DNA of 64,000 nt from a phage. Under the pieces are notes generated by a model, which was given only the letters and a program-made list of their open reading frames with translations, ran no database searches and was not told the DNA's origin. The position numbers were made by a program, and so were the translations under genes. Numbering within the stretch: the first letter of the stretch is position 1; each line of letters begins with the position of its first letter. The DNA lies in sequence record PZ386964.1; one strand, 5' to 3'. Below are positions 1 through 47,345 of the stretch, in pieces.

Positions 1-24
1 GATGGATACCCGAAAAACGCCATC

Positions 25-1533
25 GTGGTAAGCAACTCTGGAACTCCTTCAGCGCCTGAGTGGCGCATTTTCCAGAGCGTGGTTGACGGCAACACCAGCG
101 CCGTCCCAGCCAACGGCGAAACGGAATCTTGGCAGGAATTGACGCTGCCTAGCGAAGCGCGAAAATATATTCCTATGCCTGCTGGCGGCGATGCGCAAAA
201 CCCGTATTTTGTTCGCGGACTGATTTCAAACTTTGTGGACTTTGATAATATCACGACTTCCACAACTATTGTTATTCAATCTGACGCAGTCGCCGCTCTC
301 TGCTCTAACATCCCGAACGCGGTTGGTGCGACGAAGGTTGCAGGTCGTCTCCAGGTTTGCGCTTGGCAGGTTGATGCACAGACTTTCGCCCTGCAACAAT
401 ACACGTCAATGAACGGATATGTTTTCACCCGCTCTTATACTTCTGGTGCTTGGAGTGCTTGGATTCAAAATGCCACTGTTCAAGATGTGCAAATTGGAAC
501 GCCGAATCTTGCATCAGGTAAAGGCGCGCAAGATATAATTCTCACCGTTCCAGCAGGGTATTCATGGCCTCCGTCAGCAGGTAGTCGCCTGACAATCGTC
601 AATGATGTAACGACTACCGGACCTGTCACCGTGACCATTGGTGTAAACAAAGTTGCCGTTCTTGGATTCGACGGCGGCGAGTTGCCAGCTGGCGCTATCG
701 TAGGATTGCTGCCATTCACCATCATTTATGACGGAACTGTTTGGCGTCTCCTTCAGGCGTTTGGCGCGGCGCAAATCGGCGTTGATGCTACTGAGCCGCA
801 ACAGTTTGTTACAAAGCGCCAACTCGATGCTTTGGCTGCGAAGTTGATCACTATGGGTGATGTGTTCGAAGTCGGTGAGACTCGATTCCTCACCAACGGG
901 ACCAACCCGAATACTAAACTGGGCGCTTACGGCCAGGTATGGACACGACTGCCTGATAACATGGTGATTCGCACGTCCGGCGCTGCACGAAACGGTCTTG
1001 ATACAGGCGGAGCAGACTCTGTTACCCTTACCGCCGCCATGCTTCCTCTCCACAATCACAGCGTGAACATTACCACGCGACAAAGTGGTCCATGGTCCAA
1101 TACCACTGGAGACGCAGGCAACCACAACCACACAGGCGATACCAGTCAAAACGGCGCTCACGTGCACGGAATGGACACGGCAGGCAACCACCACCATGAC
1201 AGTAGCTGGGGTGAAGCCAATACTAGCGATGCGCGGTACGGCGTTTATGATGGGACACACAACAACTTCGGAAGTCGCAAAGGCGGCGACTGGGATAACT
1301 ACAAATACAATACGTCAACTAATGGCAACCACGTTCATAATATTCAATCTTCTGGATCACACACCCATGGGTTGAATATAAATTACGCTGGCAATCACAG
1401 CCACAGCTATACCCTTCCCGCTCACACTCACGATGTGGTCGGTAACACTGGCAATGCAGGGCAGTCGGTGCCAACGGCTGTTGCGACTTTGCCGCGATAC
1501 GTTGTTTTGAATGGCTGGTACAGAAGCGCATAA
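25..1533 (+). CDS. Tail fiber protein, distal receptor-binding part with His-rich HxH repeats; 5' end probably cut by the window edge
   Basis: Reading frame is open back to position 1. Translation has repeated HxH motifs (NHNHTGD, AHVHGMD, NHHHD, NHVHN, SHTHG, NHSHS, AHTHD), as in metal-binding tips of long tail fibers. Lies just upstream of the endolysin. Confidence 0.6.
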   Translation: MVSNSGTPSAPEWRIFQSVVDGNTSAVPANGETESWQELTLPSEARKYIPMPAGGDAQNPYFVRGLISNFVDFDNITTSTTIVIQSDAVAALCSNIPNAVGATKVAGRLQVCAWQVDAQTFALQQYTSMNGYVFTRSYTSGAWSAWIQNATVQDVQIGTPNLASGKGAQDIILTVPAGYSWPPSAGSRLTIVNDVTTTGPVTVTIGVNKVAVLGFDGGELPAGAIVGLLPFTIIYDGTVWRLLQAFGAAQIGVDATEPQQFVTKRQLDALAAKLITMGDVFEVGETRFLTNGTNPNTKLGAYGQVWTRLPDNMVIRTSGAARNGLDTGGADSVTLTAAMLPLHNHSVNITTRQSGPWSNTTGDAGNHNHTGDTSQNGAHVHGMDTAGNHHHDSSWGEANTSDARYGVYDGTHNNFGSRKGGDWDNYKYNTSTNGNHVHNIQSSGSHTHGLNINYAGNHSHSYTLPAHTHDVVGNTGNAGQSVPTAVATLPRYVVLNGWYRSA

Positions 1534-1541
1534 GGTGATTT

Positions 1542-2186
1542 ATGATTAATGCAAACGTAATATCTAAAGGGACAGGATGCAGCACGGATGTTGCAGAAAA
1601 TTGGGTGGACCCTTTCAAGCAGGCTTGTGAGCACTACGGAATAAAAAGCAAGAATGCCATTGCAGCATTCCTTGCAAACGTAGGAGTAGAGACGGGCGGC
1701 TTGAAGACCTTTGTGGAAAATCTCAACTACTCTGCACAGGGCCTTGCCAATACATGGCCTAGTCGTTACAGCGTCAACGGTCGTGCTGGAAGCGCCCCGA
1801 ACTCATTGGCCCTGTCGATTGCACGTAAACCTATGGAAATCGCCAATAATACATACGCAAACCGCATGGGCAACGGTTCGGTAGCATCTGGCGACGGTTG
1901 GAAGTACCGTGGCCGTGGTGCCATTCAGCTGACTGGCAAAGCGAACTATGCTGAATATACGCGTCAATCAGGCTATGATGCATTGAACAATCCTGATATT
2001 CTGACTGAACCAAAATACATTGCCGACAGCGCGGCATGGTTCTTTAAGAATAGTGGTTGTATTCCTCTTGCGGATGCAGGGAATTTTGATTCAACCGTTA
2101 AGCGGATTAATGGGGCCGCGCCGAACGCAGCGAACCACGGTGAGTTGCGAAGAAAGCGTTACAAGGATGCACTAGCAGTCATGTAA
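1542..2186 (+). CDS. Endolysin, glycoside hydrolase family 19 (chitinase-like) type
   Basis: 214 aa with the motif YRGRGAIQLTGKANY and overall GH19-like pattern; no signal peptide; followed by a strong terminator hairpin. Confidence 0.8.
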   Translation: MINANVISKGTGCSTDVAENWVDPFKQACEHYGIKSKNAIAAFLANVGVETGGLKTFVENLNYSAQGLANTWPSRYSVNGRAGSAPNSLALSIARKPMEIANNTYANRMGNGSVASGDGWKYRGRGAIQLTGKANYAEYTRQSGYDALNNPDILTEPKYIADSAAWFFKNSGCIPLADAGNFDSTVKRINGAAPNAANHGELRRKRYKDALAVM

Positions 2187-2192
2187 GAAAAA

Positions 2193-2218
2193 GGCCCATA
2201 TGGGCCTTTGTTTATTTT
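2193..2218 (+). terminator. Rho-independent terminator after the endolysin gene
   Basis: Perfect palindrome GGCCCATATGGGCC followed by TTTGTTTATTTT; A-run upstream, so it could also act on the minus strand. Confidence 0.7.
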
Positions 2219-2424
2219 ACGGCTTCAACTTGGACGGGCGGAGCGGAACTTGTATCAATGTCTGGCAAGTCGAAGTAATACCCCGCCATACCAATCACAC
2301 CTACAATCGCGGCCCGTGCCACCTTGTTGCTAATTGACTCCCCAATAAGCTTTACCAACAGGGACAAGATTTGAGACGTCAAAGCCTTTTTCAGCCTTTT
2401 GTTTTCTTCCAAATCTTTCTGCAT
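2212..2424 (-). CDS. Small membrane protein with one predicted transmembrane helix, next to the endolysin
   Basis: In-frame ATG preceded by GGTGG; hydrophobic segment AAIVGVIGMAGYYF; start lies just past the stop of the upstream minus-strand gene. The track's longer 2442 start is a TTG. Confidence 0.4.
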   Translation of the reverse strand: MQKDLEENKRLKKALTSQILSLLVKLIGESISNKVARAAIVGVIGMAGYYFDLPDIDTSSAPPVQVEAVK

Positions 2425-2438
2425 AACTACCACCCATG

Positions 2439-2981
2439 TCAACGCACTTCCTGTGTCTTAACATTACCTGAAGCATCTCTCAAGGGCAGTGGATAGTAGG
2501 CCATTTGGTAGTCTGATACGCCTTCAATGTGATAAAACACGATTACGTCTTTGCTGTTGATGAGCATGTTAACGACATCTGATTTATCTTCTGGAGTGAG
2601 TATTAGTGCGCCGCCTGTCCTGCTGTCTACTGCAACAGGGTATGTCTTGTCGACAAGGCCGCTGTCCAATGTATTATACCTGACAACGATTTCAGGGGCA
2701 TCAACTTTTGCCATCGACATTCCGAACACAAACGACACGACCTGCCGACCGCGATCATTCATTACGCACATCTTTTCTTTGTCAAATCTTTCTTTTATTA
2801 CGTCGTATTTATTCCAGCAAAACTCAAATGACTGCCCATTGTTGAAATATCTTGTCAAAACTTTTGCACTTCCATTCGGCGGCGTGAACATATTTTCAGC
2901 CGATGCAGTCTTGGTGAAGAATATAACTGTCAGCATAGCCATGATGATGATCAAAACAATCTTTAAGTTTTTCGATTTCAT
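2439..2981 (-). CDS. Secreted or periplasmic protein of unknown function
   Basis: N-terminal signal-peptide-like sequence (MKSKNLKIVLIIIMAMLTVIFFTKTASA); a sigma70-like promoter (TTTACT, 16 bp, TATACT) lies upstream on the minus strand. Confidence 0.5.
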   Translation of the reverse strand: MKSKNLKIVLIIIMAMLTVIFFTKTASAENMFTPPNGSAKVLTRYFNNGQSFEFCWNKYDVIKERFDKEKMCVMNDRGRQVVSFVFGMSMAKVDAPEIVVRYNTLDSGLVDKTYPVAVDSRTGGALILTPEDKSDVVNMLINSKDVIVFYHIEGVSDYQMAYYPLPLRDASGNVKTQEVR

Positions 2982-3012
2982 TATAATTCACCTTTTGATT
3001 ACGAATATTAAT

Positions 3013-3040
3013 AGTATAGGCCGAAGGTTTTGAAAGTAAA
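3013..3040 (-). promoter_or_regulatory. Sigma70-like promoter for the 2439-2981 gene
   Basis: On the minus strand: -35 TTTACT (plus 3035-3040), 16-bp spacer, -10 TATACT (plus 3013-3018). Confidence 0.45.
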
Positions 3041-3050
3041 TAAGGCGAAA

Positions 3051-3085
3051 GGTAAATAAAAGAAAAGCCGGAAATTTCCGGCTTT
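3051..3085 (-). terminator. Rho-independent terminator ending the ligase / MazG / spanin transcription unit
   Basis: Palindrome GCCGGAAATTTCCGGC (3067-3082) followed on the minus strand by TTTTCTTTTATTT. Confidence 0.65.
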
Positions 3086-3157
3086 ATGTATACACTGTAT
3101 ATTAAATTCTATAAAACGGCGCGATAGATTATACGCAACAATTATTTATCCAGTGTG

Positions 3158-4132
3158 TTAAAAATACTCCATATCGGTAATATCACGGAAGCATTTATAA
3201 AGCGCAGAGCGCGGCACGTCAACGATGCCAAAGTTAAAGAATTTATACGTCAAGTATTTGTGGCGATAATTTTCGCGATTATCCCAAAGCATCTTCCGCT
3301 CTGCCATAGGCATTGAACCTGCGGACACACGGAAAGGAATCATCTCACCCTTCTCATCTACATACTTTGGATTGACTACGACAAATGATCCGAGATAACC
3401 CTTGGCAACGAGTCCTTCAGCTTCCTTTGATCGTTTTGTGCGACCAAGCTCATCAATGAACGCTTCGTTGTTATTCTCCATCATCTCGACGAAATCTATG
3501 ATCTGTCCTTCTTCGTCGGTCCACGGCTTGTCTTTCCATACATCACGCGACTTCGGCGTTGCGCGACCATGCTTGTATTTGCCCGTCCACGATTTGCCGT
3601 ATAAGCCTTCATATCCAAGCTGGTCCGCTTCGACTTGCATTGCCGCGTATTGATCCATATTCTCAATGTTTCGGTATTCAAGGGCGCGAAGGAATGGTCT
3701 GTGGCCATGGTCCAAGAGATACTGATTGACCTCAGCAACTCTAGCCCGATAGTTCGCATAACGCTTTTCAAAAGGTAAATCGGGGTCGCTGAAGTCATCA
3801 AACACCCACCATGTAAAGTTAGTTATTGCATCAGTATTCATGCACGCAGTATATGCCTGCTGCATGACGTTCTTGTCATTAGGATTGCCGTCGATGAGTT
3901 CACCATCAAGGCCGTAAATCAAATCGCCCAAGAAAAGGAACTCTTTCTTGATTTGAACGTTTCGCAGCGGCATTCCAGACGTACCCATAGGAAGCTTGTC
4001 ATAAGCCATAGCACGTATGCCATCAACCTTAAATGACAATCCGCAAGGTAACGGAACGTCTTCACCGCGTTCGATGATTTGCTTACGTTGACAGCCTTTC
4101 ATTGGCTTAAGCGCTTTGATCTCTCCTGCCAT
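3158..4132 (-). CDS. ATP-dependent DNA ligase
   Basis: Adenylation motif KVDGIR (KxDGxR), LDGELI and EGLYGK motifs typical of ATP-dependent ligases; ATG at 4132 overlaps the stop of the upstream gene. Confidence 0.75.
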   Translation of the reverse strand: MAGEIKALKPMKGCQRKQIIERGEDVPLPCGLSFKVDGIRAMAYDKLPMGTSGMPLRNVQIKKEFLFLGDLIYGLDGELIDGNPNDKNVMQQAYTACMNTDAITNFTWWVFDDFSDPDLPFEKRYANYRARVAEVNQYLLDHGHRPFLRALEYRNIENMDQYAAMQVEADQLGYEGLYGKSWTGKYKHGRATPKSRDVWKDKPWTDEEGQIIDFVEMMENNNEAFIDELGRTKRSKEAEGLVAKGYLGSFVVVNPKYVDEKGEMIPFRVSAGSMPMAERKMLWDNRENYRHKYLTYKFFNFGIVDVPRSALYKCFRDITDMEYF

Positions 4133-21345: not shown

Positions 21346-21636
21346 ATGAACGAACCAAAAATGATGACCGTTGAAGAAGCACAAAATCTTCGTGTTGAAA
21401 ACGAGCTTAAGCTTGTCAACCAGATTCTTCCTTTGTTTGCGGGCTACGCAGTGGAGGAAGTTGTTGGGGCAATCCTTAACGTATCCACGCATGTCGCTAT
21501 GAATCTTCAGGCCGAACGATTCAATACGCTGCTGACTATTAAAAACCTTACGGTCAGTGCAACGTTCACCGTTGAGCCAGTCAATTTTGACGAAGCTTCA
21601 GCCGCGATTCAACAGCAAAGAGATCAAGAGGTGTAG
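21346..21636 (+). CDS. Hypothetical protein
   Basis: 96-aa ORF in co-oriented array. Confidence 0.5.
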   Translation: MNEPKMMTVEEAQNLRVENELKLVNQILPLFAGYAVEEVVGAILNVSTHVAMNLQAERFNTLLTIKNLTVSATFTVEPVNFDEASAAIQQQRDQEV

Positions 21637-21637
21637 C

Positions 21638-21901
21638 ATGGGTGCTTTCCGTAACGAGTTCACCTGGAACGTTACCAGCAATCTCTCGACTTGTCCTAAC
21701 TGTGCGAGCGATGTTATCAAGGTGCGGCAGCATCGCAACGCGGAGGAAGGTGCCTGGGAAGATGGCGACCTTGTAGAGTGCCAGTGCTGCTCTCATGAAG
21801 GCGTTGTGGAGCTTTACGCTGGCGAAGGTTGCCCACCAGCAGAGCGCACAGCACGCGTTGAATGGGATGCAACAGACTCCATTGGTGATCCTCAACAGTA
21901 A
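21638..21901 (+). CDS. Small zinc-ribbon-like protein
   Basis: Internal ATG with GAGGTG site; CPNC ... CQCC cysteine pairs. Confidence 0.45.
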   Translation: MGAFRNEFTWNVTSNLSTCPNCASDVIKVRQHRNAEEGAWEDGDLVECQCCSHEGVVELYAGEGCPPAERTARVEWDATDSIGDPQQ

Positions 21902-21919
21902 ATTTAGGTATAGATACTT

Positions 21920-22024
21920 ATGAAAGCCGTAAAGAAATACACATTAATCATTTCCCTTGTCATCATCCTGGGGCTATTATACATATTGGATATGACATAT
22001 TATTTGGCAGGGGTGAGTGGATGA
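21920..22024 (+). CDS. Small hydrophobic peptide (34 aa), absent from the ORF track
   Basis: Single predicted transmembrane helix (LIISLVIILGLLYIL); stop overlaps the next start (ATGA). Confidence 0.3.
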   Translation: MKAVKKYTLIISLVIILGLLYILDMTYYLAGVSG

Positions 22025-22311
22025 ATATTGTAATTCTTTATGGTGAAAATATCAGCGATGACGACATCGAAGTTGCCGTTGATGTTTACGGTATCGATGA
22101 GGTGAAACGTGTTGAAGAAATTAGTGGCGCAAATCTCAATGAGATTGTCAAAGAAGCTGGCTGTCCTTCGGAAGAGATTCTGGTGGTTACTAACGATGAC
22201 CTGTCTTCTATGGATCATTTGCGCCGCATCTTCACCGATTGCCAATACCTTCATGCTGTTCAATCAGTAAACAAATTGAGAAAGGCATACGCCAACCAAT
22301 TTCCTTGTTGA
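22021..22311 (+). CDS. Hypothetical protein
   Basis: 96-aa acidic ORF; followed by a terminator hairpin. Confidence 0.5.
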   Translation: MNIVILYGENISDDDIEVAVDVYGIDEVKRVEEISGANLNEIVKEAGCPSEEILVVTNDDLSSMDHLRRIFTDCQYLHAVQSVNKLRKAYANQFPC

Positions 22312-32539: not shown

Positions 32540-32812
32540 CTTACGGATAGGTTTTTATCCGTATCATGGCGCTAGGGTGCGCCGCGCCTGGATTTGTACA
32601 CTGAATCTTACGGATGATACGGATGATACGCCATTTTTCCTTATTGTAACCAGAATTATTTCAAAAATTAATTAACTCCATTTTGAATTAATTTAAATTA
32701 ATTTTTTCTACATCCTCATACTTATGTTAATTTATATATTTAACGTATTATCCGTAAGATATAAGTAAAAACAAAGACTTGCGGCAATACGGATGATACG
32801 TCATGATACGCT
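32540..32812. repeat. Iteron locus A: TACGGATGA-type repeats in both orientations flanking a ~100-bp AT-rich core
   Basis: Hairpin TACGGATA-6 nt-TATCCGTA (32542-32563); tandem ACGGATGAT twice (32610-32627); AT-rich 32641-32745 containing AATTAATTTAAATTA; inverted copy TATCCGTA (32749-32756); further TACGGATGATACG (32788-32800). Confidence 0.6.
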
Positions 32813-33024
32813 TCAACCAGCCAACTGCGGCTAAGTCATTGATTTGCATAACAAGCGGCGAAAGGGATGGATTTCTTTTATACGTATCAAACAGTACACC
32901 ACGCACCACGGTCCGTTATCCATTCAGCACTATGATTTGTGTACGTTTATAGCCATAATGAACATCAATCTGCACTTGAATATAATGTCCATCCATTGTA
33001 TAATTCACACTATTAATTTGCACT

Positions 33025-33513
33025 ATGGGATTTTGCACTATGAGTCAAGATTATGTAGCGATGCCTGAAGACTTTGAAGACCCGCGATTTGCAGAGCACA
33101 ATCAGGCTTTATTCGATGAGTTCATTGACCTTGTTATTCAGGGCCATGACATGCGCGCAGCTTTTGCACTAGTATTTGGAATGGAAGTTGCAACGGATAA
33201 CTACACTGGCCAGCGAATCCTTTGCGCGCAACGCAATCCATACTACAAGATGCGCTTCAAAAAGCGTATGGAAGAGATGCCACTCAAGGATTTGTGGAGC
33301 GTAAAAGGTGCAATTCACAATTTGGTCAAGCTTGTGCGTGATCCAGAAGTCGCGGCATCAGCCAAGCTTAATGCTATTCGTGAACTGAATATCATCTACG
33401 GCATCACGATGATTGATGAAAACGGCAATAGTAAAATGGGCCGTTCTATGGACGATTTCTACAAGGATTTTGGAGAGGCGGCCAAAGAAGGTGAGCAATT
33501 CTCCCGCCACTAG
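33025..33513 (+). CDS. Hypothetical protein, possibly DNA-binding; small-terminase-like at low confidence
   Basis: 162-aa ORF whose start codon sits inside the AATTTGCACTAT motif; helical N-terminal region then charged coiled coil; hairpin after the stop. Confidence 0.45.
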   Translation: MGFCTMSQDYVAMPEDFEDPRFAEHNQALFDEFIDLVIQGHDMRAAFALVFGMEVATDNYTGQRILCAQRNPYYKMRFKKRMEEMPLKDLWSVKGAIHNLVKLVRDPEVAASAKLNAIRELNIIYGITMIDENGNSKMGRSMDDFYKDFGEAAKEGEQFSRH

Positions 33514-33627
33514 CCAATTTGCACTATAAAACGGCCCTAGAACACATTTTCTCCACTTCTAGGGCCATCGGTAATACGACGGGGAAGGTTACAACCATAA
33601 ACGCGTTAGAAAGTGTATTATTATAAG

Positions 33628-33891
33628 TCATCTTTTAGTCACTTTCCGTAACAATTTACGACCTTCAACCGTCCAATCGAACGACTCCACCAGCAGATTT
33701 GCACCATAACCCAAGACGATGCGCCCTTTCTCGTTATCGACCCGCCAACAAGTCTCGAATAGCATTCGATTTGCACTATTAACTATTGCCGCAACGCGCG
33801 TTGGGTAAGCGCAATTTGCACTATGGTCATAAAGGGATAAGGTGCGACCACTTCCGATGGACAACGTAGCAATGAGAATAAGCGTATTCAT
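33628..33891 (-). CDS. Hypothetical small protein with hydrophobic N-terminus
   Basis: 87-aa ORF; C-terminal region paralogous to the C-terminus of the 33942-34568 product; carries two copies of the DNA motif (encoding SAN). Confidence 0.4.
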   Translation of the reverse strand: MNTLILIATLSIGSGRTLSLYDHSANCAYPTRVAAIVNSANRMLFETCWRVDNEKGRIVLGYGANLLVESFDWTVEGRKLLRKVTKR

Positions 33892-33941
33892 AAGCCACCA
33901 ATTTGCACTATGAAAAGCGACCCCGAAGGGCCGCCATTCAA

Positions 33942-34568
33942 TTAGATGATTTGGAATGTGTAGGATTTATTACCGAACTCGAAGTTCAAGCGCCCAGCTT
34001 CCTTAAGCTTCATGCGGAAGCGAATATGCTTGCTATCCGGTAGGCCCAGCGCGGCGAACGCTACGCGGACCGATTTGAACTCTCCTACACCCTCGACCAT
34101 AACGCCGTTACGGGTGAGACGCTTTTGCGCCACTTCCTTATTGTCCCAACTTTTTGCAATGCCTTCGCTATTCGAACGGCGATGGGAAGGAGTTCCATTT
34201 TGCACTACGCAATTTGCACTATCGTTTAAACCGCTCTTAACGAAGGCTTCATACTCTTCGTCGGTCATCGCGTCGAGTTCTTCCTGAGTCGGCTCGGCCT
34301 TTTTAACTACCGCACGCGCCTTATGCGTTTTTACATCGCTGGACACTTCCTCGCGCGGCTTCGCGTCGGGGATGGGCGATTCGTTGGACGGCTCATCGAG
34401 CGCGTTTAAGGACTCGATTAACGCGATTACGCGAGTCTCGGCGGTCCGGCGGTCCGCAAACTTCTTAATCGGCTTCGAACCGGAATTTGCATTATAAAAT
34501 GCAACGAGGTCGGCGGTCTTAGTTGCGATAACGTCGCCGCTAGTCGAGAAACGATTTAAGCTAACCAT
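33942..34568 (-). CDS. Hypothetical protein
   Basis: 208-aa ORF with TAGGAG site; C-terminal part (DSANC...WDNKE...NGVMVEGVG) paralogous to the 33628-33891 product. Confidence 0.5.
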   Translation of the reverse strand: MVSLNRFSTSGDVIATKTADLVAFYNANSGSKPIKKFADRRTAETRVIALIESLNALDEPSNESPIPDAKPREEVSSDVKTHKARAVVKKAEPTQEELDAMTDEEYEAFVKSGLNDSANCVVQNGTPSHRRSNSEGIAKSWDNKEVAQKRLTRNGVMVEGVGEFKSVRVAFAALGLPDSKHIRFRMKLKEAGRLNFEFGNKSYTFQII

Positions 34569-34648
34569 AATAAACTCCTATTTGTTAGGGCGCTAGGCGC
34601 GAAAGAATTTTATTAAAGCGCCGCGCACGACGCTCTAAAAATCCTCTC

Positions 34649-34933
34649 TTACGCTTCGACGAGGGAGAAGGTCTCAAATTCTTCTTCGCCCATAACGAGT
34701 AAGATATTACCGATTTCGACCGCTTCGAAGAAGTATCCGTTAACGTTTACTTCGAAGGCTTCGCGGTCCGATTCCGGTAGCGCCGCGTAAAGTTTAAAAG
34801 CCTCGGCGACCGTTACCCCACCCGCCTCGATAGTTTGGTCTACGTTCGCGGCGTAGACTTCGGATAAATTTTGTTTAACGCCGTAGTTCTCGACGATAGC
34901 GTTACGAATAGAAGAAACGTTAAGAATAGCCAT
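34649..34933 (-). CDS. Small acidic protein, paralog A
   Basis: 94 aa, strongly acidic (net about -12); TAGGAG site; paralogous to the 35568-35858 product. Confidence 0.55.
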   Translation of the reverse strand: MAILNVSSIRNAIVENYGVKQNLSEVYAANVDQTIEAGGVTVAEAFKLYAALPESDREAFEVNVNGYFFEAVEIGNILLVMGEEEFETFSLVEA

Positions 34934-35002
34934 TTTAAACTCCTAGTTGGGAGAGGCGTTAACGACCTATTCGTTAACTCATCCCGTCCCGATATGAGTA
35001 CA

Positions 35003-35029
35003 TTATAATATAGTGTAGAAAAAAGTAAA
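35003..35029 (-). promoter_or_regulatory. Possible minus-strand promoter for acidic paralog A (divergent from the 35157 gene promoter)
   Basis: Minus strand: -35 TTTACT (plus 35024-35029) within an inverted copy of the AAAGTGCTTTACT element; -10 TATAAT (plus 35003-35008) at a short 15-bp spacing. Confidence 0.3.
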
Positions 35030-35072
35030 GCACTTTTTCGATAAAAATGAGATAAATTATTTTATCTTTTTC

Positions 35073-35100
35073 TTTACTTCTTCGTACACTCGCATATACT
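35073..35100 (+). promoter_or_regulatory. Sigma70-like promoter for the 35157-35459 gene
   Basis: -35 TTTACT (35073-35078), 16-bp spacer, -10 TATACT (35095-35100); shares TTTACTTCTTCGTACACT with the next promoter. Confidence 0.5.
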
Positions 35101-35156
35101 TGTTTATATCGAGACGGGCGATGTCCCTTCCTTCTACTAGCATCGGGAGCTTTATT

Positions 35157-35459
35157 ATGACTACTTTAATCTCTTCCATCCTTACTTACGACGAAGACCG
35201 CTTAACCGTTCGCTCTCTTATCGCCGCCGTTAACGCGGAACTAGAATCTAGCGCCATTAAGGTCCGCGCGGTCGCCTTCATCGGCCTTTCCTTCGACGAT
35301 ATGAAGTATGCCGAACGTAGCGCTATCCGCTTCGCGAAGACCGACGACGAAGCCGTTACCCTTATCGAGACGGTTACGCCGCGCGGCGAAGCGTTAATTA
35401 TCGTCGAGTATATCGACGTAGAAGGCGATAAGGCTTATAAATATTTTATCGCAGAATAA
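35157..35459 (+). CDS. Small acidic protein, possibly a third member of the same family
   Basis: 100 aa; GGGAG site; promoter TTTACT, 16 bp, TATACT upstream; acidic composition similar to the flanking paralogs. Confidence 0.5.
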   Translation: MTTLISSILTYDEDRLTVRSLIAAVNAELESSAIKVRAVAFIGLSFDDMKYAERSAIRFAKTDDEAVTLIETVTPRGEALIIVEYIDVEGDKAYKYFIAE

Positions 35460-35470
35460 CGAAAAAGTGC

Positions 35471-35499
35471 TTTACTTCTTCGTACACTAAGACTATAAT
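35471..35499 (+). promoter_or_regulatory. Sigma70-like promoter for acidic paralog B
   Basis: -35 TTTACT (35471-35476), 17-bp spacer, -10 TATAAT (35494-35499). Confidence 0.55.
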
Positions 35500-35567
35500 G
35501 TTTTATATCGAGAGGGGGATGAGGTAGCGAATAGGTCGCTACCCTCCCGACCAACTAGGAGATTATT

Positions 35568-35858
35568 ATGATTACTTTAGCCGCTATCCGTAACGCTCGC
35601 GCCGAAACTTCCGAAAACTCTAACGTATTTGGCGAAAAACTTAAAAACGTTTATCTCTTTAACGTAGATGCGACTATCGAGGAGCTTCATAGTCCTATCG
35701 ATTTTAGCGAATTTACGGAACTCGAAGAGGAAGATATTTCTACCTTCCGCGTTACTATCGAAGGCAAGGTTTATTTTGCTACGGAGTTCGGCGGCGAATA
35801 TCTCGCGGTATCCGAAGGCGAAGGCCGTTACTCTTTCTTTAAAATCGTCTCCTTATAA
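35568..35858 (+). CDS. Small acidic protein, paralog B
   Basis: 96 aa; AGGAG site; promoter TTTACT, 17 bp, TATAAT upstream; terminator downstream; N-terminal and FxV...G...F.A.E.G motifs shared with paralog A. Confidence 0.55.
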   Translation: MITLAAIRNARAETSENSNVFGEKLKNVYLFNVDATIEELHSPIDFSEFTELEEEDISTFRVTIEGKVYFATEFGGEYLAVSEGEGRYSFFKIVSL

Positions 35859-35878
35859 TACCCTTCCGTTATTAATAG

Positions 35879-35903
35879 GCCGCGCTTAGTCGCGGCTTTT
35901 CTT
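35879..35903 (+). terminator. Rho-independent terminator after acidic paralog B
   Basis: Hairpin GCCGCG-CTTAGT-CGCGGC followed by TTTTCTT. Confidence 0.6.
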
Positions 35904-35905
35904 CG

Positions 35906-36557
35906 TCCCTATCTCGATGCGCTTCTCCGCGAAAACTCCTTTATCCTTCCCTTCTTCGTCGCATAATCTTCATCGAGATGCGCCTTAGTTCGCATAACAG
36001 GTATTACGTTAAATGGAGAACATCGCGTAAGTCCTTGTTTTATATAGACACCTATATCGGACCGTTAGGGCGGGTCGCGTAAGTCGTTGTTTTATAAAGG
36101 CGCAAAACTTTCCCTTCGTTCCGAACTAAAACGAGAAATATGCCGACCCTTCGCCGGAAAATAGTACGCATGCGAAATTACATGCATCTAGAATAATCCC
36201 CACCGATATTATCCTACACGCAATCATTCGCTTTCGAATCATTATGCTTCATATTATTATGCGTCGAATCATTCGCTTTCGAATTGTAACGCTGGAAACT
36301 GTAACGTCGATTGATTATTGCGTTCGTGTGGTTTTTATGGCATGGGTCTTTTGGTGCGTTTTGCTACTTGATGGAATTTGCAGTACACTAATCAAAATAC
36401 GACACATTTGGTCCACTAACTTTTCAAAGAAAAAGTCCTAGACAGTACCGTACTATTTTGTACCCACAGGAAATTTGCAGTACACTCCTGTGCGGCAGGC
36501 AAAATAAAGGGCCGCACCAAGCGACCCACGATTCACGGTTAAATCAACAAGCACCCA
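35906..36557. repeat. ORF-free, repeat-rich ~650-bp region
   Basis: Direct repeat CGCGTAAGTC(C/G)TTGTTTTATA (36014 and 36076); palindrome ATTCGCTTTCGAAT twice (36225, 36270); AATTTGCAGTACACT twice (about 36366 and 36470); hairpin GTGCGGC-14 nt-GCCGCAC. Confidence 0.5.
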
Positions 36558-46493: not shown

Positions 46494-47345
46494 ATGGCTT
46501 TTAAAGCTTCGAGAAAACGTGAACGCCGCTCACCCGATAGAATCGGGCGCGGCAGTCCGATAGTACCATCAAATGCTATTGCGATGGCCTACCGTCGTGA
46601 GATGAAAGGTCTTTGCTATGCGATGATTGATGACTATCAGGAAGGCATTTCAGAATGGCTTGACAAGAAGCAGGTGCAAAAGTTTTTTGCGCAAGACTCT
46701 GCTGATTCGACATTCCAGACCCTTATGAAAAGGCTGCAGCTGAAATGGGCAAAGGCTTTTGCACGTGTTGGGTCAAAGATTGCCGCCGATTTTATCAAAT
46801 CGGTCGAAAAGGGCGCTACTTCTGCTACATTCGCCAGCCTTAAGTCAGCAGGCATAGAAGCGCCAAAGGCCACATATAACAAATTCGTTGAGAACACTCT
46901 TAGAACAAGCGAGACGTTCAACACGACTCTAGTGACTAAGGTCGGCGAGGACATTCACAACAGAGTGTACGAAGCAGTCATGCTTTCGTTGACTTCGCCC
47001 GACCCAGCCCAGCAAGGAACGTCAGGCATTCAGGCGGCGTTGCGAAACGTAAAACACTTCTCTGCAAAGAGAGTCGACTTAATCGCTAAAGACCAAACGA
47101 GCAAATTGTATTGCGTTCTAAGCGATGAAAGGATGCGCCAGAATGGAGTCGAAGAATTTGAGTGGGCGCACTCAGGAGCAGGAAAGGAGCCGCGAATCTC
47201 TCATGAGCACGTCGACGGAATGAGATTCAAACTTGATGACAAGCGCCTATGGGAAGTTGGCGGCGAATTGAAGTTCAAAAAGGGTGACATCGGTCCTCCT
47301 GGATGGGCAATACACTGCAAGTGCAGAAAAATACCAATCATTTGA
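46494..47345 (+). CDS. Head morphogenesis protein, MuF / SPP1 gp7-like
   Basis: Position right after the portal; C-terminal PGWAIHCKCR motif. Confidence 0.6.
   Translation: MAFKASRKRERRSPDRIGRGSPIVPSNAIAMAYRREMKGLCYAMIDDYQEGISEWLDKKQVQKFFAQDSADSTFQTLMKRLQLKWAKAFARVGSKIAADFIKSVEKGATSATFASLKSAGIEAPKATYNKFVENTLRTSETFNTTLVTKVGEDIHNRVYEAVMLSLTSPDPAQQGTSGIQAALRNVKHFSAKRVDLIAKDQTSKLYCVLSDERMRQNGVEEFEWAHSGAGKEPRISHEHVDGMRFKLDDKRLWEVGGELKFKKGDIGPPGWAIHCKCRKIPII

Follow-up and report, generated by a model that had tools for sequence, protein, structure and literature searches.

The closest described counterparts of the locus reported here are the early regions of phages T7, T5 and SPO1 and the class of DNA-mimic inhibitor proteins. 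T7 encodes gp0.3 (Ocr), a small acidic protein, among its class I early genes, which lie at the first-entering genome end behind strong host sigma-70 promoters and have a structured mRNA leader or processing hairpin. The pre-early genes of T5 and the host-takeover module of SPO1 are small, mostly orphan genes carried in a long direct terminal repeat with strong host-type promoters, and for these clusters a role in shutting down host functions and defences is established or presumed. The DNA-mimic inhibitors, among them Ugi, T4 Arn, phi29 p56, T7 gp5.9 and ArdA, are proteins of about 50-170 amino acids (aa) with a net negative charge, of phage or plasmid origin and expressed early; they are grouped by what they look like and do, in structure and function, and share no defining sequence. 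We analysed a stretch of 64,000 nucleotides (nt) of phage DNA (sequence record PZ386964.1; the whole stretch is referred to as the window), and within it a module of three small acidic genes, named here A, B and C. The window derives from a Wifcevirus, an Escherichia coli myovirus, and is 93-96% identical to phages Mansfield and WFC. The best supported reading of the module, which we consider about evenly balanced between right and wrong, is that A, B and C encode immediate-early, host-directed inhibitor proteins.

Set beside T7, the module likewise encodes small acidic proteins at a genome end that would enter first, with predicted strong sigma-70 promoters and a structured leader. The likeness does not extend to sequence or detail: A, B and C have no sequence similarity to Ocr (Pfam, E<=1), their charge density is lower, Ocr is an all-helical dimer whereas the low-confidence model of C is mixed alpha/beta, and the 160-bp terminal repeat of T7 is non-coding, whereas the Wifcevirus module lies inside the repeat. 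With T5 and SPO1 the module shares its location within a direct terminal repeat, its small orphan genes and its predicted sigma-70-type promoters; however, those repeats span about 10-13 kb against 3.8 kb here, where one of about seven genes encodes the small terminase, there is no sequence homology, and early expression in Wifcevirus is a prediction only. The same prediction of early expression, together with size, net negative charge and phage origin, relates A, B and C to Ugi, Arn, p56, gp5.9 and ArdA, with which they have no sequence or fold match. A/C and B add new orphan families to the small acidic early phage proteins, a well-known kind, and nothing in the evidence here points to an unusual mechanism.

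The module comprises the following features, in window coordinates.

34649-34933, minus strand: gene A, 94 aa, net charge -12, isoelectric point (pI) 4.05; paralog of C and head of a leftward operon
34958-34978, minus strand: A-leader hairpin GUUAACGA-AUAGG-UCGUUAAC, with an 8-bp stem and an AAUAG loop
35002-35029, minus strand: leftward promoter P_A, -35 TTTACT, 16-nt spacer, -10 TATAAT; shared element with 3 mismatches
35073-35100, plus strand: promoter P_B, -35 TTTACT, 16-nt spacer, -10 TATACT; exact shared element
35157-35459, plus strand: gene B, 100 aa, net charge -7; orphan family separate from A/C
35471-35499, plus strand: promoter P_C, -35 TTTACT, 17-nt spacer, -10 TATAAT; exact shared element
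35523-35543, plus strand: C-leader hairpin GGUAGCGA-AUAGG-UCGCUACC, with an 8-bp stem and an AAUAG loop
35568-35858, plus strand: gene C, 96 aa, net charge -10, pI 4.4; paralog of A, WFC-type allele
35877-35898, plus strand: intrinsic-terminator-like hairpin ending the rightward B-C transcription unit

Genes, families and distant relatives

A, B and C are real genes, all under purifying selection. Each has a good Shine-Dalgarno site and a conserved length, and each was annotated independently in records of related phages. Our comparison set consisted of about 29 GenBank records of Wifcevirus, including Mansfield, WFC, WFH, ECML-117 and the BASEL phages Bas98-101, with genomes of 66-72 kb; over the 3-kb region around the module, the window is 93-96% identical to these roughly 29 E. 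coli and Shigella phage records. Orthologs occupy the same locus in Mansfield (gp005-007), WFC (WFC_00005-00007) and ECML-117 (AFO10450/51), where all are annotated as hypothetical, and ortholog aa identity to the window is 86-100% for A and B and 57-98% for C. Gene A, with 16 aspartate and glutamate residues against 4 lysine and arginine residues, is 100% identical to Mansfield gp005, at a nonsynonymous rate (dN) of about 0 and a synonymous rate (dS) of 0.083. Gene B was found in all 29 records at 86-98% aa identity, with dN/dS mostly 0.1-0.4 (all pairs). Gene C is full length in 28 of the 29, the last matching over only 24% of it, and falls into allele groups that are either 97-98% or 57-69% identical to the window in aa sequence. 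Between these groups nucleotide identity drops to about 70% inside flanking DNA at 93-96%, the divergence is concentrated after residue ~36, and dN/dS rises from 0.1-0.25 within an allele group to 0.33-0.64 between groups.

The initial annotation had described A and C as paralogs, and this relationship is well supported. BLASTP aligned the two at 33% identity over 87 aa (E 9e-8), and a profile built without any A sequences recovered A (E 3e-7) as its only other match among the 773 stop-to-stop open reading frames (ORFs) of the window. The two genes are further united by a common promoter-leader unit, described below. We also considered B as a third, diverged paralog; BLASTP returned no alignment and hhalign gave a probability of 0.1%, despite similar layouts of the low-confidence structural models, and the candidate was rejected. 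The start of B was placed at the ATG at 35157, not at 35158. Longer in-frame starts fall in B's own promoter or leader, distant homologs of B begin at the equivalent of 35157, and a 1-nt indel in the relative L006 breaks the upstream in-frame extension, which argues for 35157 as the start.

All three proteins had also been called strongly acidic, which holds for A (-12) and C (-10); B, at -7, is clearly less acidic. Ranked by acidity per residue within a rough set of 92 window ORFs, A came first, C tied for third and B stood at about tenth. All three combine small size with net negative charge, as do the DNA mimics. Net charge is conserved in the A/C family, at -8 to -13 among members sharing about 35% identity, and ranges from -4 to -21 in the B family. 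Three other small acidic ORFs stand in a row at 21346-22311 on the plus strand (96, 87 and 96 aa; net -7, -10 and -10); neither these nor the acidic ORFs elsewhere in the window have any sequence relation to A, B or C.

Relatives beyond the genus were few. Searches seeded with k-mers across 5.8 billion proteins returned Wifcevirus orthologs only, while four real clusters of the A/C family emerged when 1.84 billion representatives were searched exhaustively with a profile, and a second profile search added two further distant members. The distant members are P0036, P0040, P0043 and P0044; P0037-39, long proteins with immunoglobulin-like repeats, were set aside as motif or compositional matches. 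The contigs that carry these distant members are L007 (23 kb), L014 and L015 (1.3 kb), and in all three an A/C-like gene stands directly 5' of a B-like gene, although the proteins are only about 35% identical to those of the window. Synteny is broader in L007 and L014, which have a small-terminase-like gene and two leftward genes, including a homolog of the 208-aa gene that follows A in the window, before the rightward A/C-like and B-like pair; L015 holds that pair only. The B-like genes of these contigs encode 122-125 aa with net charges of -14 to -21. Scans of metagenomes, genomes and viral sequences yielded only Wifcevirus-like contigs, L015 and one 687-bp contig (L038; NZ_JPLE01000151.1) assigned to 'Xanthomonas pisi DSM 18956'. 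This contig encodes B at 95% identity and probably reflects contamination of that assembly with Wifcevirus DNA; contigs of about 68 kb that carry several 'E. coli' protein records are likewise whole phage genomes.

Sequence searches with A, B and C in Pfam, PHROG, NCBIfam and PDB found no homologs. The Pfam scan at E<=1 gave only two sub-threshold matches to domains of unknown function and none to the Ocr (PF08684) or ArdA (PF07275) profiles, and profile searches against PDB sequences produced nothing relevant. The AlphaFold2 models of C and B were of low confidence, with predicted local distance difference test (pLDDT) scores of 61.5 and 47.8; both show N-terminal helices followed by a C-terminal beta-meander, and fold searches with these poor models gave no match. 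Of the known mimics, Ocr folds as an elongated helical dimer and ArdA as a curved dimer with three domains. The literature we searched contained no functional or transcriptomic study of the three genes.

Expression signals and the terminal repeat

An element common to the promoters of both plus-strand genes had been noted, and we located exact copies of it, TTTACTTCTTCGTACACT, at 35073-35090 and 35471-35488 on the plus strand. The inverted copy ascribed to gene A is likewise present, at 35012-35029 on the minus strand with three mismatches, but the promoter to which it belongs is not A's own: in Wifceviruses without A, the same leftward promoter and leader directly serve the 208-aa gene, and A is therefore best described as an insertion at the head of the leftward operon. 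Chance alone would give 0.03 matches to TTTACTTCTTCGTACACT in the window, where 4 are present; the remaining one, at 46964, has no promoter context and is unrelated. The first six bases of the element, TTTACT, serve as the -35 hexamer in all three promoters, which, judged from sequence only, agree with the sigma-70 consensus at 9-10 of 12 positions with spacers of 16-17 nt. They also share a conserved spacer, TCTTCGTACACT, and, after the -10 hexamer, a start region, ATATCGAGA, written (T)TATATCGAGA. The pattern TATAMT-N3-7-ATATCGR occurs three times in the window, against 0.02 expected, and all three occurrences are in the module; since it is found nowhere else, this promoter type is private to the module within the window.

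The promoter core extends to the distant relatives. A 19-nt sequence, CTTTACTTnTTCGTACACT, made up of the -35 hexamer and 12 nt of spacer, lies at 35072-35090 and 35470-35488, and recurs in L007 (5953-5971), L014 (2442-2460) and L015 (78-96). Before the first gene of these contigs the core CTTTACTT(C/A)TTCGTACACT is nearly invariant. Promoter spacers are not usually conserved to this degree, and the retention of this one beside proteins of only about 35% identity implies that its sequence is itself under selection. It may determine promoter strength or be an operator. Pattern scans of IMG/VR and of the metagenomes of the Joint Genome Institute (JGI) found the promoter only beside the A/C and B families, with the exception of IMG/VR contigs L019, L021 and L023. 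These three have the 19-nt core only, in one shared unrelated context with no -10 hexamer, and were discounted as chance matches.

Downstream of P_A and P_C, the leaders of A and C each form a hairpin in which two base pairs differ on both sides, as compensatory changes, and the loop is invariant. Other Wifceviruses have G-U-compatible variants of the stem, and the distant relatives a shorter hairpin at the equivalent place in the leader. This hairpin may stabilise the mRNA, or it may be a site of processing or regulation. Homology between the A and C units extends over about 130 bp and takes in promoter, leader and ribosome-binding site as well as an upstream CGAAAAAGTG. The inverted repeats I1 and I2 span their leaders and promoters, and I1 shows that the gene, too, belongs to what the units have in common; duplication evidently copied a whole expression cassette in inverted orientation. 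At the other end of the rightward unit, Mansfield and WFC carry an annotated terminator at the place homologous to 35877-35898. Scans of the module region for Rfam families and tRNAs gave no matches.

The setting of the module in the genome is defined by the features below.

32680-36432, no strand: equivalent of the direct terminal repeat, from the WFC repeat mapped onto the window; holds the whole module
33025-33513: gene for the small terminase (match to PDB 7uxe, E 6e-34), inside the terminal repeat
33942-34568, minus strand: 208-aa gene (phrog_4730), downstream of A in the leftward operon

Wifceviruses have a direct terminal repeat of about 3.7 kb (PMC6563267). The WFC record includes two identical copies of 3784 bp each, which map to about 32680-36432 in the window, so the whole module (34649-35898) lies within the terminal repeat. 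In Mansfield the repeat was assigned by PhageTerm to positions 1-3673 (3673 bp) and includes gp005-007, and records that include both repeats hold the module in duplicate. The initial annotation had placed the module in a repeat-rich accessory region; it does stand outside the replication and structural blocks, self-contained with its own promoters, but the region in question is the direct terminal repeat.

The gene content between the leftward promoter and the 208-aa gene varies. Among the 29 records, this slot holds A in 12, WFC_005 in 11 and is empty in 6. WFC_005 encodes 104 aa with a net charge of -15 and is unrelated to A; its membership in the A/C family was considered and rejected as unproven, the score of 2.9 bits comparing with up to 6.5 bits for shuffled sequences. 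The 208-aa gene itself is very strongly conserved (dN/dS 0.01-0.12, all pairs), and has homologs at the same position in L007 and L014. The regions around the ribosome-binding site and start of A and of the 208-aa gene are alike (repeat D5; 34569-34648 and 34927-34949), which suggests cassette insertion by recombination at the slot. Slot states and C alleles reassort freely, as in L027 and L032, and the window's own combination of A with a WFC-type C allele appears in none of the 29 GenBank records. Three of the empty-slot phages that we examined, ECML-117, vB_Eco4M-7 and Ro157lw, have an extra gene for a 69-aa basic protein after C; they were isolated on O157 or unspecified Escherichia hosts.

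Candidate functions of the module

Location in a terminal repeat, host-type promoters, acidity, an exchangeable slot and deep alleles are typical of early host-directed or anti-defence genes. With the repeat at both genome ends, the module is present on whichever end enters the cell first, and host sigma-70 RNA polymerase would be expected, from the promoter sequences, to transcribe it at once upon entry. The A, B and C proteins would then act as stoichiometric binders or inhibitors of host factors. Candidate targets include a restriction enzyme, RecBCD, another defence or repair nuclease, or some other DNA- or RNA-binding host protein, and nucleic-acid mimicry would be one plausible way to bind them. 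A slot with exchangeable acidic occupants, diverged C alleles and reassortment of the two look like signs of an arms race, and the polymorphism could represent adaptation to variable host targets. Together with the position in the terminal repeat, the slot and the alleles give circumstantial support to a host-directed or anti-defence role.

Wifceviruses are reported to resist all but one of the E. coli defence systems tested, no protection mechanism being known, and the four BASEL isolates, Bas98-101, are described as sharing one resistance profile while remaining sensitive to EcoP1_I (PMC11990801). The same paper cites a report of their very fast life cycle (PMC11990801). Because 14 EcoRI, 5 EcoRV and 7 EcoKI sites are present in the window, site avoidance is not the explanation, and resistance to restriction with no known mechanism of protection makes an anti-restriction function worth testing. 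In its most ambitious form, A/C and B would constitute an unrecognised two-component anti-defence system that explains the broad restriction resistance, with the terminal repeat making the module the first DNA in, and in two copies, the dedicated promoter and leader giving immediate expression, and the slot genes and C alleles setting which defences are neutralised. We regard a system of this scope as unlikely.

Several observations count against a host-directed inhibitor role. B is only moderately acidic, clearly below A and C, and some C alleles have a net charge of only -5 to -8. The terminal repeat is not purely a host-takeover region, because the small terminase is encoded there. None of the three proteins has homology to characterised anti-defence or host-takeover proteins in Pfam, PHROG, NCBIfam or PDB, and the AlphaFold2 models are too poor for surface charge to be judged. 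The BASEL Wifceviruses differ in their combinations of slot state and C allele, and since these isolates share a resistance profile, that polymorphism explains none of the tested phenotypes. The resisted panel reportedly covers type II enzymes, and it is DNA modification, more typically than a protein mimic, that confers resistance to these.

The initial proposal was that these proteins are DNA mimics, and as a specific mechanism, in which A, B and/or C of the Ocr, ArdA, Arn or Ugi kind would titrate restriction or other DNA-targeting defence enzymes through carboxylate surfaces that copy the DNA backbone, with acidic groups spaced like its phosphates, we consider it plausible but, on balance, unlikely. 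In its favour are the small size, acidity and solubility of the proteins; A, at -0.13 per residue, ranks first in acidity among the ORFs of the window, acidity is conserved across the A/C family, and the alternative slot gene is also very acidic (-15); the module would moreover enter the cell as first DNA, and the published resistance has no known mechanism in a genome where restriction sites are present. To set against this, no similarity to known mimic families appeared in Pfam or PDB, there was no fold match, with models too poor to reveal charge patterns, and charge density is at the low end for known mimics, B and some C alleles reaching only -5 to -8. Type I restriction-modification and bacteriophage exclusion (BREX) systems are what classical mimics inhibit; mimics of the Ocr kind are not known to block type II enzymes, which reportedly figure in the resisted panel, and the phages are still EcoP1_I-sensitive. 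A role in transcription, in which the proteins bind RNA polymerase, sigma-70 or nucleoid proteins in the manner of T7 Gp2 or T4 AsiA, appears quite unlikely. It would shut off host or early phage transcription and could contribute to the reported very short latent period, in keeping with the fast life cycle cited in the BASEL paper, and it agrees with the early-looking position and promoters. The unusually conserved spacer, start region and leader hairpins suggest a dedicated regulatory circuit, possibly autoregulation, and strong conservation of B is what would be expected for the partner of an invariant host machine. Yet no homology to known RNA-polymerase-binding proteins was found, and the presence or absence of A and the divergence of C alleles fit variable targets better than a conserved RNA polymerase.

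The neighbourhood raises a further option, namely that the proteins serve the terminal repeat itself and are not directed at the host. As accessory factors they would assist in packaging, in duplicating the repeat, in protecting the ends or in initiating replication. The small terminase gene shares the repeat with them, as do a one-strand array of eight AATTTGCACTAT motifs and further repeats in the non-coding right part, detailed below. Core factors of this kind are not normally dispensable, however, yet A is absent from 17 of the 29 records and C is allelically replaced, and strong sigma-70-type promoters with a terminator of their own resemble an early accessory cassette; we consider such a role very improbable. 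As for the idea that the ORFs are open by chance or are functionless genes in decay, the short lengths and the lack of database homology beyond the Wifcevirus-like lineage are what one would see, but dN/dS well below 1, conserved length, a ribosome-binding site and promoter for each gene, and homologs at about 35% identity that keep synteny in distant relatives speak otherwise. Selection and synteny effectively refute this explanation, to which we attach almost no weight.

If the A, B and C proteins do inhibit defences, as the reading of immediate-early, host-directed inhibitors allows, they would represent new inhibitor families; otherwise they add to the small early genes known from phages. 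Wifceviruses are candidates for therapy and biocontrol, and the module provides a short list of candidate genes for their resistance and fast-cycle traits, consisting of two orphan families and one alternative slot gene, all located where expression should begin. The isolates Bas98-101 differ naturally in alleles and in gene presence, which allows a direct comparison. A compact, strong early expression cassette might in addition be built from the conserved promoter core and leader hairpin.

Other repeats and site frequencies

The 12-mer AATTTGCACTAT is present in 8 copies at <=1 mismatch, against 0.7 expected, at 33015-34495 and all on the plus strand. The array is confined to 1.5 kb of the terminal repeat, begins at the start codon of the small terminase gene, and continues antisense through an 87-aa gene and the 208-aa gene. 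One possibility is an array for terminase recognition (pac-like), another an array of other binding sites.

Several direct repeats lie at 35900-36490, a span that covers the right-hand, non-coding portion of the terminal repeat together with its boundary. One of these, TCGCGTAAGTC(C/G)TTGTTTTATA, has copies at 36023 and 36075; two copies of its core, CGTAAGTCGTTG, are also present in the corresponding non-coding region of the distant relative L014. A 43-nt repeat pair is located at 36206 and 36251, and copies of AATTTGCAGTACACT at 36375 and 36472 flank the repeat boundary near 36432. Over the window as a whole, some short palindromes are rarer than expected: GATC stands at 0.43 of expectation, BamHI sites number 0 against 9 expected, XbaI sites 1 against 11, and KpnI sites 1 against 5.

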